Positions 28,271 through 38,723 of a DNA stretch of 64,000 nt are shown one piece after another. The notes below the pieces were generated by a model. The model worked only from the letters and a program-made list of their open reading frames with translations, was not told where the DNA came from and ran no database searches. This DNA comes from Nitrospirota bacterium. Its GTDB lineage: Bacteria > Nitrospirota > UBA9217. The stretch is taken from the NCBI GenBank assembly GCA_963740085.1, contig CAVUCU010000004.1:641996-705995 (forward strand), read 5' to 3'. A program made the position numbers and the translations under genes. How positions within the stretch are numbered: the first letter of the stretch is position 1; every line of letters begins with the position of its first letter.

Positions 28271-28672
28271 CTATCGATCAACGCTGTCTTTACTAAATAC
28301 AAATCTCCTGTTCATAACAAAGGTCAATAAGGCCACGGGAGCTAACGTCAATAACCCCCCTAAATAAAGATCTATAGATAACATACTGAAAACTTTCAGA
28401 CAGGCAATATTTATTAAGTAGGTAACCGCATAAACAAGAATAAATTTCACGATGAGCGAGTTATTCGCATTCTTGAAAACGATAACGCCTATGGTTTTGA
28501 AATTGAATAGAACTCCCAGGATTGTTGCCGTTAATGTCGCGATCGTATAATGGAGGCCTATAAACAACAGCAGCGCAAAGATGGAGTAACCGAATAAAGC
28601 GTTAAATAAACCAACGATGAGAAATCTCGCAAAATAACTGTCCCTGAACGCCATTTTAATGAACCGTACCAT
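28271..28672 (-). CDS. GtrA-family small membrane protein (polyprenyl-phosphate-sugar flippase-like)
   Basis: 133 aa with four predicted TM helices, and the GtrA-like motifs FLIVGLFNALFGYSIF and RRFVF. Confidence 0.75.
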   Translation of the reverse strand: MVRFIKMAFRDSYFARFLIVGLFNALFGYSIFALLLFIGLHYTIATLTATILGVLFNFKTIGVIVFKNANNSLIVKFILVYAVTYLINIACLKVFSMLSIDLYLGGLLTLAPVALLTFVMNRRFVFSKDSVDR

Positions 28673-28682
28673 GCTGTACTAT

Positions 28683-29624
28683 TTATATTTCCGGGTCAAA
28701 ATTTATCCGTTCTTTCTCTATGACTAAAGGTCTCTTAAGAACTTGCGTGTGTATTGATCCAATATACTCACCGATAATGCCTAAAAAGAACAACTGAACA
28801 GATGAAAAGAAGAAAAGGCCGATAACGAGCGGCGCCATCCCCAAGGTAAACTTGGCCCAGAATATCAATTTAGCTATAAAGAATATAAATGCTGCAAGCA
28901 AACTTAGCAAAGACAGGAGAAAACCTATCATGGCGGCAAGACGGAGCGGAATCTTTGAATGGTTTGTGATGCCCAACATCGCTATATCATAAAGTGTATA
29001 AAAATTATTCTTTGTAATTCCTCTTTTCCGGGCGGCCTGATGATAGCTGATCTTTGCGCTGTCAAAACCGATGTCGGATATGAGACCTCGGAAATAAGGA
29101 TATACATCATTTATTTCCCGCAAGATTTCAATAACTTTTTTATCATATAACCCGAATCCGGTAAAGTTGTCCGTCAATGGTATGTCCGATAATCTATTTA
29201 TTAATTTATAATATAATTTCCTAACAGCAAAGAATACGGAAGATTCCTCACTTTGCATCTTAACACCCATAACAACTTTGTAGCCCTCTTCCCACTTTTT
29301 AATGAAGTCAGCGATCAGAGCAGGTGGATCCTGCAAATCCGAATAAAGTAAAACGACTGCGTCGCCGCGTGATTGAAGTAGTGCATGATGAGGAGAGCGG
29401 ATGTGACCGAAGTTTCTCGAGTTAATGATTATTTTAACTCTCTTATCGCGATGTGCTATTTCTTTCAGGATCTGAACTGTTTTATCGCGTGATGCGTTAT
29501 CTATGAAAATATGTTCGTAAACGTAATCAGGGAAAGCATCGAAAACCTCCTTGACTTTTGCGTAGACCAATTCAACATTTTCCTCTTCATTATAACAGGG
29601 TGTTACGACGCTGATTAATTTCAT
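28683..29624 (-). CDS. polyprenyl-phosphate glycosyltransferase, GT2 (GtrB/ArnC/DPM1-like)
   Basis: ISVVTPCYNEEENV..IFIDNASRDKT and a DLQDPP-type DxD region, plus two C-terminal TM helices. The probable start is MKLISVV at 29624. Confidence 0.8.
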   Translation of the reverse strand: MKLISVVTPCYNEEENVELVYAKVKEVFDAFPDYVYEHIFIDNASRDKTVQILKEIAHRDKRVKIIINSRNFGHIRSPHHALLQSRGDAVVLLYSDLQDPPALIADFIKKWEEGYKVVMGVKMQSEESSVFFAVRKLYYKLINRLSDIPLTDNFTGFGLYDKKVIEILREINDVYPYFRGLISDIGFDSAKISYHQAARKRGITKNNFYTLYDIAMLGITNHSKIPLRLAAMIGFLLSLLSLLAAFIFFIAKLIFWAKFTLGMAPLVIGLFFFSSVQLFFLGIIGEYIGSIHTQVLKRPLVIEKERINFDPEI

Positions 29625-29655
29625 GTTCGAGCTCCCGTAAAGATTTCTAATCTTT

Positions 29656-30600
29656 TCAAACCAAGACCGCCGCTGCTTCCTCTTTAATGCTCTCGATTGA
29701 AGTAAAACGTGGATAATATCCGATCGTATGGGCTTTCCTGCTGAGTGAAAAGTAGCTATCCTTGTTTCCCGTAGCGGAAGCAATGCTCATATTTTCTTCC
29801 ACGGTATATTTCAGTCCAAAGTTATTGCGAAAGAAGGATAGTATCTCAAATTTATCGACGGGATTAAGGCTGAACACATCATAAACATCATTACCCGTAG
29901 AATGTTCTATGCATTTTAGCACCAGAGAAAACAGGTCATCAGGATGGACATAATCTCTGATCATATTTTGCGGACTCGTCACAAATACCCTATTAGCTTT
30001 GATGCAGGAAATAATATCAGAGAGAAAGTACTGTGAGTCAAGATCAATGAACCGGCTGAAATACGCAAAGACCCTTAGGTCACATATATTCAGTAAGGCA
30101 TGCGACCTGTGCTTCGCTTCAGAATTAATCTTGGCAATCGTATAGTAATTTTCAGGAATAAGGTGATTTATATCCAATGAAGAACTTGTACCGTCGGAGG
30201 CCGGCTGAGAACGATCAGATCCGTACGCGGCTCCACTGCTGAAGTTTATATATAGCTTGTCCTGATGATGCAAAAGATAATCAATAATGAGGTTATCATA
30301 AAGCTCTGTTAAACCGAATATTAGGGCAGGTTGTGCCTTCAACTTTACAGGCTGTCCGATACCGATGCAATTGATAATCACATCGTACGTTCCCTCGTTG
30401 AATTCATCGAGCGAATGCACCCCAACAATATTCCGTGCATCGATTGACCGGAGAAAATCAGCCACCTTATCGTGCGATCTCGCAAAAAGAACAAGCTCGG
30501 ACTTACCATGCCGCGTAAAGTGGAATATCAACCCCTTTGCTATGTGACTCGTTGCGCCTAAAATTGCTATTTTCATGTTTAAGAAATTGTCTTTCTTCAC
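29656..30600 (-). CDS. NAD(P)-binding Rossmann protein, atypical SDR/epimerase-like
   Basis: KIAILGATSHIAKGL glycine-rich motif. It belongs to the sugar-nucleotide operon, and its specificity is unknown. Confidence 0.55.
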   Translation of the reverse strand: MKKDNFLNMKIAILGATSHIAKGLIFHFTRHGKSELVLFARSHDKVADFLRSIDARNIVGVHSLDEFNEGTYDVIINCIGIGQPVKLKAQPALIFGLTELYDNLIIDYLLHHQDKLYINFSSGAAYGSDRSQPASDGTSSSLDINHLIPENYYTIAKINSEAKHRSHALLNICDLRVFAYFSRFIDLDSQYFLSDIISCIKANRVFVTSPQNMIRDYVHPDDLFSLVLKCIEHSTGNDVYDVFSLNPVDKFEILSFFRNNFGLKYTVEENMSIASATGNKDSYFSLSRKAHTIGYYPRFTSIESIKEEAAAVLV

Positions 30601-36817: not shown

Positions 36818-36818
36818 T

Positions 36819-37946
36819 TCATCCCTTTGCCATAAGAGCGGAGTACTCTTCTATCTGCTGAAGACAGGCTTTCTTTCCCTCTCGGCTTTTTTCGTAGTCC
36901 TTCGTCCACGCAACAATGCTTTCAATGGCCTTATCCAGACTCCAGCGCGGTTTCCACCCAAGCTCGGCTTTGGCCTTGGAGCAATCCAGCTTCAGGAAAT
37001 GGGCCTCGTGAGGATGCACCCCTTTATCCACCACAAAAGAGGCAGTATCTCCCCAGTGTGAGCATAACTGTTTCACCAACCACTCCACCGGCCGCGCATC
37101 TTCATCTCCAGGTCCGAAATTCCATGCCCCGGAATATCGAGGCCCCTCCTGTATGAGCTTTTGTGCAAGCATCAGGTAACCGCTCAAGGGTTCCAGCACA
37201 TGCTGCCAGGGTCTTATCGCGTCGGGATTTCTGATAAGGACGGGTTCTGCTTTGAGTAGTGCCCGTACGCAGTCAGGAATAAGACGGTCCGTTGCCCAGT
37301 CCCCTCCTCCGATGACGTTTCCCGCGCGCGCAGTGGCGATGCTAACACGGTGAGCGGCATATTCTTTCGGATTGAAGTAGGAACTGCGATACGCGGCGGT
37401 GACCAGCTCGGAGCAGGCCTTGCTGTTCGAGTAAGGATCATATCCTCCGAGCGCTTCATCTTCGCGATAACCCCACACCCATTCTCTGTTCTCATAGCAC
37501 TTATCAGTCGTGACATTAATGACTGCGTGAACGCTCGGACACGCCCGGACCGTCTCAAAAAGATTCACCGTACCCATTACATTGATCTCATAGGTTTCAA
37601 CCGGTATTTTATACGAATCCCGGACCAGCGGCTGGGCAGCCATGTGGATAACGAGCTCCGGTTGAGCTGATACCATCGCCTCATGCAACGATTTCCGGTC
37701 CCGTATATCCGCAATCGTGGATTCGATGATCTTGTCAAGAGCGCACAAATTGAATAAACTCGGTTCCGTCGGAGGCTGCAAGGCATAGCCGTATACGCGG
37801 GCACCGAGCGAATGAAGCCACAAACAGAGCCAGGAGCCCTTGAAGCCGGTATGACCGGTTATGAACACGCGCTTATTCTGCCAGAATATTTCGTATCGAT
37901 CATTCATTACACTCGCGGTCTTTCCGTCATGGGCTTTGAGCCGCAT
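36819..37946 (-). CDS. rfbG: CDP-glucose 4,6-dehydratase
   Basis: FWQNKRVFITGHTGFKGSWLCLWLHSLGARVYGY matches the RfbG/DdhB signature. The true start may be MNDRYEIF. Confidence 0.85.
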   Translation of the reverse strand: MRLKAHDGKTASVMNDRYEIFWQNKRVFITGHTGFKGSWLCLWLHSLGARVYGYALQPPTEPSLFNLCALDKIIESTIADIRDRKSLHEAMVSAQPELVIHMAAQPLVRDSYKIPVETYEINVMGTVNLFETVRACPSVHAVINVTTDKCYENREWVWGYREDEALGGYDPYSNSKACSELVTAAYRSSYFNPKEYAAHRVSIATARAGNVIGGGDWATDRLIPDCVRALLKAEPVLIRNPDAIRPWQHVLEPLSGYLMLAQKLIQEGPRYSGAWNFGPGDEDARPVEWLVKQLCSHWGDTASFVVDKGVHPHEAHFLKLDCSKAKAELGWKPRWSLDKAIESIVAWTKDYEKSREGKKACLQQIEEYSALMAKG

Positions 37947-37949
37947 CTT

Positions 37950-38723
37950 CTATTTCCAGACCTTCCAGGGGGCATCGCCCGACTGCCAGAGAGACTCAAG
38001 ATGATTTTTATCGCGCAACGTGTCCATGGCATACCAGAAACCATGATGCTTATATGCGATCAATTGATTGCCCTGCGCAAGATGTTCCAAGGGCTCTCTC
38101 TCGAAGACGGTACCATCATCAGAAATCAAGTCCAGCACGCCTGGTTCGAGCACAAAAAACCCTCCGCTGATCCACGATCCATCGCCTGCTGGTTTTTCCT
38201 GAAAGGCAACGACTTTTTCCGTTGCGTCGATGTTCAATGCGCCGAATCTGCCAGACGGCAGGGCGGCGGTCACTGTTGCCTGTTTCCCGTGACTACGATG
38301 GTAGTCTATAAGCTGACTAATGTTTATGTTTGACACACCGTCGCCGTAGGTGAGCATGAATGGCCCCGCCCCGATATAGGGCGCGACGCGCTTTATCCGG
38401 CCTCCGGTCATCGTATCGGCGCCTGTATCAACGAGGGTCACTTTCCATGGCTCGGCAAAACGCTCGTGAACTTCCATTTTGTTGTGTTGCATATCGAAAG
38501 TGACATCGCTCATATGAAGAAAATAGTTGGAGAAGTATTCTTTTATCATGTATCCCTTGAAACCGAGGCAGATGATAAATTCATTATAGCCATAATGAGA
38601 ATAACTCTTCATGATGTGCCAGAGGATTGGTTTCCCCCCAATCTCCACCATGGGTTTTGGACGAGTTGATGTCTCTTCACTGATCCGCGTACCTAATCCA
38701 CCAGCCAAGATCACGACTTTCAT
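37950..38723 (-). CDS. rfbF: glucose-1-phosphate cytidylyltransferase
   Basis: MKVVILAGGLGTRISEETSTRPKPMVEIGGKPILWHIM is the RfbF/DdhA signature, at 257 aa. Confidence 0.85.
   Translation of the reverse strand: MKVVILAGGLGTRISEETSTRPKPMVEIGGKPILWHIMKSYSHYGYNEFIICLGFKGYMIKEYFSNYFLHMSDVTFDMQHNKMEVHERFAEPWKVTLVDTGADTMTGGRIKRVAPYIGAGPFMLTYGDGVSNINISQLIDYHRSHGKQATVTAALPSGRFGALNIDATEKVVAFQEKPAGDGSWISGGFFVLEPGVLDLISDDGTVFEREPLEHLAQGNQLIAYKHHGFWYAMDTLRDKNHLESLWQSGDAPWKVWK

Follow-up and report, generated by a model that had tools for sequence, protein, structure and literature searches.

A probable erwiniose-type gene cluster for an acyl-branched CDP-3,6-dideoxyhexose in an LPS/O-antigen region of an uncultured bacterium

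The window analysed here, a stretch of 64,000 nucleotides probably from an uncultured Nitrospirota bacterium, carries ten minus-strand genes between positions 28271 and 38723, with gaps of −11 to +40 nt between consecutive genes. An earlier note, made from the sequence alone, had described ten tightly packed open reading frames here. All of them were confirmed at those positions, with family matches far beyond chance, and the gene identities it gave held in profile searches with Pfam/NCBIfam-type models. The genomic surroundings encode an O-antigen ligase, a WbaP-like transferase, a Wzx-like flippase, Wzm/Wzt, heptosyltransferases and ManB/ManC/Gmd. The cluster sits within a large LPS/O-antigen region.

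The first gene, rfbF/ddhA (37950..38723), encodes a glucose-1-phosphate cytidylyltransferase that matched TIGR02623 over its full length with 442 bits (cut-off 300). It was 97% identical to its homologue in the related locus L052 and 68% identical to that of Geomonas. The second, rfbG/ddhB (36819..37946), encodes a CDP-glucose 4,6-dehydratase (TIGR02622, 516 bits, cut-off 278). The alignment to this model begins at residue 21 and the Geomonas homologue has 361 residues; the true start of rfbG is probably the Met at 37907.

The third gene, rfbH/ddhC (35416..36817), encodes an E1 PMP/[2Fe-2S] 3-dehydrase and scored 669 bits against NF011936 (cut-off 423). It is not one intact open reading frame, because a one-base insertion near 36594 causes a +1 frameshift, and the first ~76 codons are read in another frame (36569–36817). 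The extra base was evident when the gene was compared with Geomonas RfbH and with the 95%-identical DNA of L052, and the tblastn match was split into two pieces, in frames −1 and −2. The repaired RfbH has 466 residues and contains CxCx7C at residues 274–284, as well as SFYPPHH, whose His presumably takes the position of the Schiff-base Lys in related aminotransferases. With the Fe-S motif and the His feature both present in the repaired protein, the E1 assignment of the earlier note stands. The frameshift had been missed, and the 465-aa open reading frame that was presumably its basis has a spurious N-terminus. No gene for an E3 (DdhD/AscD-type) reductase was found in the window or in 52 related loci, by a motif scan and by Pfam searches that covered most of the larger open reading frames. 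This absence had been overlooked before.

The next gene (33600..35384) encodes a YerE/ErwE-like ThDP-dependent carboligase with three TPP domains. Its best match in the PDB was 8rph, a YerE-like enzyme, with 371 bits, compared with 239 bits or less for PpYerE and acetolactate synthase (ALS). It may be noted that 8rph has the CDG motif reported for JanthE, whereas the window enzyme has the canonical GDG.

The two genes that follow encode an acylating acetaldehyde dehydrogenase resembling DmpF, BphJ and ErwJ (32683..33561; TIGR03215, 379 bits, cut-off 282; PF09290) and a class II pyruvate aldolase resembling DmpG, BphI and ErwI (31656..32681; TIGR03217, 402 bits, cut-off 286). The dehydrogenase contains TCGGQA, which we take to be the stretch with the catalytic Cys of DmpF. 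The aldolase shares 43.6% identity with DmpG (1NVM) and retains the catalytic R/D/H and HxH residues. In fold, in domain architecture (with the DmpG communication domain) and in the catalytic residues of the aldolase, the window pair agrees with DmpFG, BphIJ and HsaFG of aromatic and steroid catabolism. Unlike the latter, the window pair has no catabolic pathway genes nearby, and the direction proposed for it is biosynthetic. The aldolases also differ at two positions (BphI numbering). The equivalent of the stereo-determining Tyr290 is Phe in the window and in 120 of 120 homologues, and that of Leu87 is His in the window and mostly His among the same homologues (His 94, Phe 16, Leu 10). BphI engineered as L87N/W together with Y290F switches to the (4R) acid (PMC3962088). 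The window aldolase, with residues like those of the engineered enzyme, is predicted to be (4R)-selective.

When the related loci were compared, the ThDP enzymes at least 59% identical to that of the window, which make up its clade, were directly followed by DmpF and DmpG in all ten cases. For the more distant ThDP enzymes (n = 37), DmpF/DmpG adjoined none except that of L052, where a 44%-identical ThDP enzyme lies beside a near-identical DmpFG and an extra HpaI-type aldolase. Because of this locus, the pairing of ThDP clade and aldolase type is not absolute. The core of rfbF, rfbG, rfbH, ThDP enzyme, DmpF, DmpG and SDR recurred across several bacterial phyla and one archaeon in the loci fetched. 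Geomonas limicola has the same eight-gene order, and in L002, a 93% relative, the latter half of the cassette is present, with GT2 and GtrA among its genes.

Two SDR genes come next. SDR1 (30617..31666; PF01370, 117 bits) is an extended SDR. It lies directly after DmpG in seven of the nine clade-1 loci fetched (L001–L006 and L009; 47–85% identity), and homologues of 32–36% identity adjoin YerE-like genes in other clades. It is a candidate for the side-chain C-1' ketoreductase equivalent to ErwF/YerF. SDR2 (29656..30576; PF01370, 46 bits), an atypical SDR with a YxxxK motif, gave no PDB relatives at E<0.01 and was confined to L001, L002 and L005 among the related loci. It may be an accessory epimerase or reductase.

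The last two genes encode a polyprenyl-phosphate GT2 of the GtrB/ArnC type (28683..29624) and a small membrane protein of the GtrA family (28271..28672). The GT2 matched Synechocystis GtrB (5EKP) with 188 bits over residues 4–303 and ArnC with 107 bits, and two C-terminal TM helices were predicted; its earlier description as GtrB-like was thus borne out over the full length. Of 50 loci, 16 had a homologue of it (48–93%) no more than 10 kb away from a YerE-like gene. The GtrA assignment also proved genuine (PF04138, 59 bits, cut-off 26; four TM segments predicted). The protein may act as the flippase of the lipid-linked sugar, and its counterpart from the equivalent place in L002 shares 60% identity with it.

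Directly upstream of rfbF, on the same strand, lies a glycosyltransferase gene (38914..41162; ~740 aa) that the earlier note had overlooked. Structure prediction gave its product a GT-C fold, with high confidence, and also a C-terminal CBM-like beta-sandwich; no Pfam or NCBIfam model for this family was found. Three 1-nt frameshifts split the gene into open reading frames of 201, 358 and 140 aa. In L051, an independent syntenic locus without the sugar cassette, the GT-C gene adjoins a GtrB-like GT2. On the modelled fold, it is a candidate GtrC-equivalent that would complete the delivery system. The Gtr system of O-antigen modification (GtrA/GtrB/GtrC) and the ArnC/ArnT system of lipid A modification likewise pair a periplasm-facing GT-C transferase with a polyprenyl-phosphate GT2 that bears two C-terminal TM helices, and Gtr also includes a GtrA-family protein. 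The window differs from these systems in its gene order (GT-C, sugar genes, GtrB, GtrA) and in its donor, which would be a CDP-linked branched dideoxyhexose and not UDP-glucose or UDP-Ara4FN. No GtrB-family enzyme is known to use a CDP-sugar.

A comparable set of genes has been described for Pectobacterium atrosepticum SCRI1043, whose erwiniose cluster consists of ErwE, ErwF, ErwI and ErwJ with ddh genes (Steitz et al. 2022, PMC9306805). In that pathway the aldolase–dehydrogenase pair makes 4-hydroxy-2-oxopentanoate, and ErwE, which prefers the (R) form and refuses pyruvate and 2-oxobutyrate, adds the four-carbon branch from it (PMC9306805). Common to both clusters are the genes for CDP-4-keto-3,6-dideoxyglucose, a YerE-like carboligase, a BphI-like aldolase, a BphJ-like dehydrogenase, an NAD(P)H reductase and a glycosyltransferase. 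The two aldolases are also alike in their distance from the catabolic enzymes, ErwI being reported as 43% identical to BphI (PMC9306805). The erwiniose cluster comes from an enterobacterium. Its gene order also seems different, to judge by nothing more than the run of accession numbers that the paper gives. Unlike it, the window has a second SDR and a frameshifted rfbH; its delivery genes are explicit (GtrB-like, GtrA, GT-C), whereas the paper names just one glycosyltransferase. Orthology to ErwE, ErwF, ErwI and ErwJ is proposed on gene content and family membership. The claim of the earlier note that nothing known combines such genes with a DmpFG pair fails, because a YerE-like enzyme, a DmpG/DmpF-type pair and ddh genes together make up the published cluster. 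After that publication, a catalogue has come to list over 200 YerE-like clusters (PMC12247030).

It is rather probable that the window encodes a pathway of the erwiniose type that makes an acyl-branched CDP-3,6-dideoxyhexose, with a Gtr-like three-component delivery. All nine steps of the scheme are drawn from homology. RfbF, RfbG and E1 (RfbH), with an unlinked reductase, would convert glucose-1-phosphate to CDP-4-keto-3,6-dideoxy-D-glucose. The DmpF-like dehydrogenase would reduce acetyl-CoA to acetaldehyde, which the DmpG-like aldolase would join to pyruvate, giving (4R)-4-hydroxy-2-oxopentanoate. The ThDP enzyme would decarboxylate this acid and place the four-carbon acyl unit on C-4 of the keto sugar; SDR1 would then reduce the side-chain ketone, and SDR2 may cause a further stereochemical change. 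The GtrB-like GT2 would move the sugar from CDP onto undecaprenyl phosphate, GtrA would assist the membrane crossing of the lipid-linked sugar, and in the periplasm the GT-C enzyme would join this sugar to the LPS glycan.

The caryophyllose and gastriose clusters of Mycobacterium marinum and M. gastri share the principle of an aldolase-made hydroxylated 2-oxo acid followed by ThDP attachment (PMC9306805). Campylobacter concisus loci related to this type were found among the related loci. This type differs from the window in its HpcH/HpaI-type aldolase and longer donors (C6–C7), and its ThDP enzymes (37–41% identical to that of the window) form a separate clade.

A less likely but serious alternative is that the cluster is a decaying pseudogene array from which no sugar is made, and that the frameshifts, which affect rfbH, the GT-C gene, gmd, wzt and glycosyltransferases, are real mutations. 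The part of the window from 27.0 to 48.4 kb has at least 12 frameshifts, whereas the well-matched genes at 1–27 kb and 49.6–64 kb showed none; since the frameshifts are clustered, uniform sequencing error is an unlikely source. However, the five disruption sites compared with the DNA of a relative were all single-base indels in or beside short homopolymers, with no nonsense mutation or larger deletion among them. Indels of this kind are what errors in a long-read consensus typically leave behind. O-antigen islands vary between strains, and metagenome assemblies often cover them poorly. Moreover, eight of the ten cassette genes (about 8.9 kb) are intact, and close relatives have intact copies of rfbH and the GT-C gene (L052) and of gmd (L002).

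The earlier note had proposed a two-carbon branch from pyruvate. Here the ThDP enzyme would act like Yersinia YerE, transferring an acetyl unit, and DmpFG would have another role. The enzyme does belong to the YerE-like group, and the order of ddhA/B/C then ThDP gene resembles the Yersinia arrangement as given in that note. Yersiniose A synthesis in Y. pseudotuberculosis (DdhA-D, YerE, YerF) also shares the CDP-4-keto-3,6-dideoxyhexose acceptor, the class of ThDP enzyme acting on the ketone and a later ketoreduction. YerE, however, draws a C2 branch from pyruvate, so that no aldolase is required. The E3 reductase DdhD is encoded in the Yersinia cluster, but no counterpart was found in the window, and we know of no GtrAB-type delivery for yersiniose. 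The match of the window enzyme to PpYerE (239 bits) was no better than that to ALS. The clade-restricted pairing with DmpFG, broken only by L052, indicates a dedicated donor supply. As the DmpFG-containing combination is published with 4-hydroxy-2-oxopentanoate as donor and a four-carbon branch, and ErwE from that cluster refuses pyruvate, the two-carbon reading is probably wrong, and we give it little chance.

Still more doubtful is the reversed order, in which acetyl transfer from pyruvate by the ThDP enzyme would come first, and extension of the sugar-bound branch by the aldolase second. This is chemically conceivable and was raised as an alternative by Steitz et al., who tested it for ErwE and rejected it because pyruvate was not accepted. 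The residues with which DmpG binds pyruvate and the metal are retained in the window aldolase. Its pairing with a dehydrogenase that would supply acetaldehyde is in keeping with a 2-oxo acid released as free product. It is hardly conceivable that the ThDP protein is an ALS for branched-chain amino acids merely happening to lie in the cluster, a check set by the earlier note: TIGR00118 and many other ALS models match it at E ~1e-100, but it falls far below every NCBIfam ALS cut-off (e.g. 351 against 538 bits), no regulatory small-subunit gene was found beside it, its synteny with rfbF, rfbG and rfbH is kept in most related loci fetched, and its nearest solved structure is YerE-like.

The erwiniose-type pathway is thus the reading that we prefer. 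If the frameshifts in rfbH and the GT-C gene are real, the pathway would be dead in this genome. The cluster is a new example of the scheme published in 2022 for Pectobacterium, and not a new system, and we expect its product to be erwiniose itself or else a stereoisomer or homologue close to it.

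The cassette consists of ten co-directional minus-strand genes at 28271-38723, as seen in an ORF listing and profile searches of the window. They run in the order rfbF, rfbG, rfbH (E1), a ThDP-dependent enzyme, a DmpF-like dehydrogenase, a DmpG-like aldolase, two SDRs (SDR1 and SDR2), a GtrB-like GT2 and GtrA. The first three scored above their equivalog cut-offs: rfbF gave 442 bits to the NCBI curated model TIGR02623 (cut-off 300), rfbG 516 bits to TIGR02622 (cut-off 278), and rfbH 669 bits to NF011936 (cut-off 423). With the cytidylyltransferase, the 4,6-dehydratase and E1 (the last in frameshifted form), the cassette holds the supply set for CDP-4-keto-3,6-dideoxy-D-glucose. 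Intergenic gaps within it ranged from -11 to +40 nt. Promoter and terminator counts were at chance level (32 against 32.1 expected, and 18 against 13.6, respectively), so that the scan was uninformative on co-transcription, and we infer the latter from the packing alone. Between GtrA and gmd, at 28204-28176, lies a sequence that strongly resembles a promoter (11 of 12 positions matching).

The profile match of rfbH started only at residue 72 of a 465-aa ORF, and the proper N terminus was encoded by a second ORF (36491-36817) in a different frame. When Geomonas RfbH was used as a tblastn query, the match was split over frames -1 and -2. Alignment to the 95%-identical DNA of L052, a close relative, revealed one extra base near 36594. 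The repaired protein has 466 residues and keeps the CxCx7C motif and the His of SFYPPHH; hence the diagnosis of an E1 3-dehydrase made in the earlier note stands. RfbH (35416-36817) also carries an insertion of ~14 aa at about residues 205-225 of the repaired protein, between the first Cys and CxCx7C, resulting in a Cys spacing of C-X75-C as against C-X61-C in Geomonas. Pfam searches, covering the majority of the larger ORFs of the window, and a motif scan detected no gene for a DdhD/AscD-type E3 reductase, the partner of E1, either in the window or in 52 related loci. Since general cellular reductases can serve some E1 homologues, the missing E3 gene is not fatal to the pathway, and E1 presumably relies on an unlinked reductase encoded elsewhere.

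All three TPP domains are present in the ThDP protein, which scored below every acetolactate synthase cut-off (351 bits to TIGR00118, for which the cut-off is 538). The neighbours of its gene are rfbH and the DmpF-like gene, and no regulatory subunit gene adjoins it. On these two grounds a biosynthetic acetolactate synthase (IlvB/G/I with its small subunit), which the earlier note had set against its own reading, was ruled out. The closest solved structure was the YerE-like 8rph (371 bits). PpYerE (5ahk) and plant and bacterial acetolactate synthase structures gave about 230-239 bits, the protein scoring no better against PpYerE (239 bits) than against the synthases. In 8rph the ThDP motif takes the CDG form that a review describes for JanthE. 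Homologues of the window protein number thousands; the best 120 share 64-93% identity with it and have about 594 residues, and the sources named among them included Geomonas, Planktothrix, Limnothrix and methanogen MAGs.

When the ThDP sequences were clustered and compared with a tblastn matrix of the loci, all ten members of the window's own clade (at least 59% identity) were followed directly by DmpF and DmpG. The other clades (37 sequences, 30-44% identity) had no adjacent DmpF/DmpG, L052 excepted. Many members of one of these clades, including that of Campylobacter concisus, had an HpcH/HpaI-type aldolase instead, a pairing with a YerE-like ThDP enzyme that follows the logic of mycobacterial caryophyllose.

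The products of the two genes immediately downstream of the ThDP gene also scored above their cut-offs: the DmpF-like protein gave 379 bits to TIGR03215 (acylating acetaldehyde dehydrogenase, cut-off 282), and the DmpG-like protein 402 bits to TIGR03217 (4-hydroxy-2-oxovalerate aldolase, cut-off 286). The aldolase is 43.6% identical to DmpG, with Arg17, Asp18, His21 and the HxH metal ligands kept. In the window protein (31656-32681) the equivalents of BphI Tyr290 and Leu87 are Phe and His, respectively. Among the best 120 aldolase homologues (P0012 and P0156-P0274; Flavobacterium, Planctomycetes and Methanoperedens were among the sources named), the Tyr290 equivalent was Phe in every one, and at the Leu87 position 94 had His, 16 had Phe and 10 had Leu, i.e., His or Phe in 110. 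The engineered BphI double mutants L87N/Y290F and L87W/Y290F make the (4R) acid in place of the (4S) one (PMC3962088). Judged by these residues, the sugar-cluster aldolases would naturally mirror the engineered (4R)-selective variants. A catabolic DmpFG/BphIJ meta-cleavage module was ruled out by the sugar-nucleotide and glycosyltransferase neighbours and by the lack of the (4S)-determining Leu87 and Tyr290.

The same gene content has been described before. In P. atrosepticum SCRI1043, Steitz et al. 2022 (PMC9306805), who set out from yerE and yerF, found a cluster that encodes ErwE (ThDP enzyme), ErwF (reductase), ErwI (BphI-like aldolase, 43%), ErwJ (BphJ-like dehydrogenase, 41%) and the enzymes for CDP-4-keto-3,6-dideoxyglucose. 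ErwE couples 4-hydroxy-2-oxopentanoate, with a preference for (R), to a ketone and does not accept pyruvate; the ErwE-based route to erwiniose is these authors' proposal (PMC9306805). By gene content and family, the window shares with this cluster the sugar-supply genes, a YerE-like ThDP enzyme and an adjacent BphI/BphJ-like pair; the likeness to ErwE (WP_011093010) and its partners is taken from published descriptions of the proteins. The window cluster is therefore a kind of system already described in 2022. The earlier note had annotated each gene correctly, as the profile searches showed, and its observation was sound; since the erw cluster is published, its view that YerE logic had not been seen together with a DmpFG pair is incorrect. 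Nor is its two-carbon branch from pyruvate the best reading, as ErwE refuses that donor (PMC9306805). In yersiniose biosynthesis (YerE/YerF) pyruvate is the donor and there is no dedicated aldolase, unlike in the window's clade with its adjoining DmpF and DmpG. The 4-hydroxy-2-oxopentanoate donor, shown for ErwE, is predicted for the window enzyme from the (4R)-type aldolase residues. As (4R) is the enantiomer that ErwE prefers, this signature counts for a model in which the DmpFG-like pair supplies the donor, giving it indirect but independent support.

ErwF is the NAD(P)H side-chain reductase of the erwiniose cluster. The cassette has two SDRs, of which SDR1, a candidate for this role, was syntenic in most related loci; an exact look-up of the window's SDR1 sequence gave no record.

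The GT2 aligned full-length with Synechocystis GtrB 5EKP (188 bits) and with ArnC (107 bits), and two C-terminal TM helices were predicted. GtrA gave 59 bits to PF04138 (cut-off 26), with four predicted TM segments. Within 10 kb of YerE-like genes, GtrB-like homologues (48-93% identity) were present in 16 of the 50 loci examined, and GtrA homologues in 8. Upstream of rfbF lie three hydrophobic ORFs (201, 358 and 140 aa), for which profile searches of Pfam, NCBIfam and the PDB returned nothing usable. Among 1.8 billion representatives searched, their homologues were single proteins of 600-800 aa, and the three pieces were collinear along one of them (P0396). The single-sequence AlphaFold model had a pLDDT of 46, and an alignment-based model was used instead; with 39 homologues, the repaired 739-aa protein reached a pLDDT of 91.9. 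The modelled fold is that of a GT-C transferase, and a DD pair in the first loop is invariant or near-invariant. This gene (38914-41162, minus strand) is the candidate GtrC equivalent. It likewise precedes rfbF in L052, and in L051, a second related locus, it directly precedes a different GtrB-like GT2. Hhalign showed no homology of this family to the large membrane proteins encoded next to GT2 in L004 (a further related locus) and C. concisus. All parts of a three-component Gtr system, i.e., the GtrB-like GT2, the GtrA-family protein and the GT-C transferase, are thus matched in the window, and the idea of GtrAB delivery put forward in the earlier note is strengthened by this partner. From its context, the GT2 is predicted to use a CDP-linked branched sugar as donor, and not the UDP-glucose of Gtr systems.

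A genome scan for related loci returned 48. Geomonas limicola has the eight biosynthetic genes in the same order as the window, and in the 93% relative L002 the genes from ThDP through GtrA are collinear with it. Among the fetched loci, near-identical gene sets were found in Desulfobacterota, Cyanobacteria, Kiritimatiellia, Coriobacteriia and one archaeon; Flavobacterium, Planctomycetes and methanogens were added by named protein matches alone. The archaeal locus, from a Methanomassiliicoccales MAG (L009), has the ThDP-DmpF-DmpG-SDR core at 47-66% identity with rfbF/G/H nearby, which implies that the cassette has moved between domains. Named archaeal protein matches came from Methanomicrobiales, Methanoregulaceae and Methanoperedens. 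Reviews give erwiniose itself only from Erwinia carotovora and Pectobacterium. Pectobacterium was not represented among the 48 scanned loci, and was not named among the best 120 ThDP or the best 120 aldolase matches. E. coli genomes gave no match, and plasmids only ordinary ilvB at about 30% identity.

L051 shares the backbone of the window (ManC 94%, ManB 86% and Gmd 93% identity) and lacks the sugar cassette. Its genes at 4320-21732 encode an FkbM-coiled-coil protein, a 1243-aa triple GT4, a 756-aa GT-C, a GtrB-like GT2 (34% identical to the window's), a methyltransferase, gmd, an SDR, two GT4, ManC and ManB. The cassette therefore looks like an exchangeable insert between the GT-C gene and gmd; no repeats or tRNAs around it mark an insertion boundary. 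L052 (1-9952) is a mosaic, in which rfbF (97%), DmpF (95%) and DmpG (98%) are nearly identical to the window's as against 80% for rfbH and 44% for ThDP. An extra HpcH/HpaI aldolase gene precedes its ThDP gene, giving two aldolase systems in one cluster. This mosaic suggests that modules have been swapped, and that the branch differs and may be longer. In the human-associated C. concisus (L020, L021 and L027) the cluster comprises rfbF, rfbG, a YerE-like ThDP enzyme, a HAD hydrolase, an HpaI-type aldolase, an SDR, rfbH, a 690-aa membrane protein, an acyltransferase, GtrA and a GtrB-like GT2, and a longer acyl-branched surface sugar is predicted.

The cassette lies in a cell-envelope polysaccharide region (21-64 kb) with ManB/ManC, Gmd, many GT4/GT2, Wzm/Wzt, a Wzx-like flippase, a WbaP-like initiating transferase and an O-antigen ligase; heptosyltransferase genes are present at both window ends. 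The best named relatives of MiaB were Nitrospirota MAGs (70-73% identity), and the assignment to a Nitrospirota host is tentative. The region is flanked by two radical-SAM genes with a CofH/MqnC C-terminal domain, presumably of the futalosine pathway, and by a biotin gene cluster of the bioW type (10848-13010 and 16837-21268), which we regard as consistent with such a host. The product of 26599-26994, a gene lying between gmd and the fcl-like gene, belongs to the '23S rRNA intervening sequence protein' family (PF05635, 95 bits), and L002 has a member of the same family at the same position.

At least 12 single-base frameshifts were present at 27.0-48.4 kb: one each in rfbH, gmd and the FkbM-coiled-coil gene, three in GT-C, at least four in the triple GT4 and at least two in wzt. 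None was seen elsewhere in the window, where the well-matched genes of 1-27 kb and 49.6-64 kb look intact; one suspected in a GGDEF gene (4157-5539) was rejected, the gene being intact. All five sites checked against relatives' DNA were 1-nt indels in or beside short homopolymers, as would be expected of consensus error in a strain-variable island, which is probably the explanation and which we prefer to local pseudogenisation of the O-antigen region. In gmd (27048-28107), just downstream of GtrA, there is one extra G (CTTGGCC, as against CTT-GCC in L002 and L051). The fragments at 41911-45698 belong to the 1243-aa protein with three GT4 domains, and those at 45698-47184 to a 509-aa fusion of an FkbM methyltransferase and coiled-coil repeats, both intact in L051.

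It is possible, in our judgement somewhat short of probable, that the cassette is a horizontally mobile plug-in between the GT-C gene and GtrB/GtrA, in which a GT2 of a GtrB subfamily transfers a C4-acyl-branched 3,6-dideoxyhexose from its CDP-linked form to undecaprenyl phosphate, the ~750-aa GT-C attaches this sugar in the periplasm to LPS, and SDR2 leads to a new stereoisomer and not to erwiniose. We know of no earlier CDP-sugar-dependent enzyme of the GtrB class; were this reading true, the GT2 would be the first such member known to us. What is new here is modest: the wide spread of the cluster, a (4R)-type signature in natural aldolases, a GtrB subfamily implied to use CDP-sugars and the unannotated GT-C family, which could now be given a name and a profile model. 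The last three are directly testable leads; the GtrB subfamily may accept CDP-sugars, and the predicted family of naturally (4R)-selective DmpG-type aldolases may be of use in biocatalysis. The window holds no new kind of system; its value is as evidence that the spread of the erwiniose-type route goes far beyond what the chemistry record suggests.
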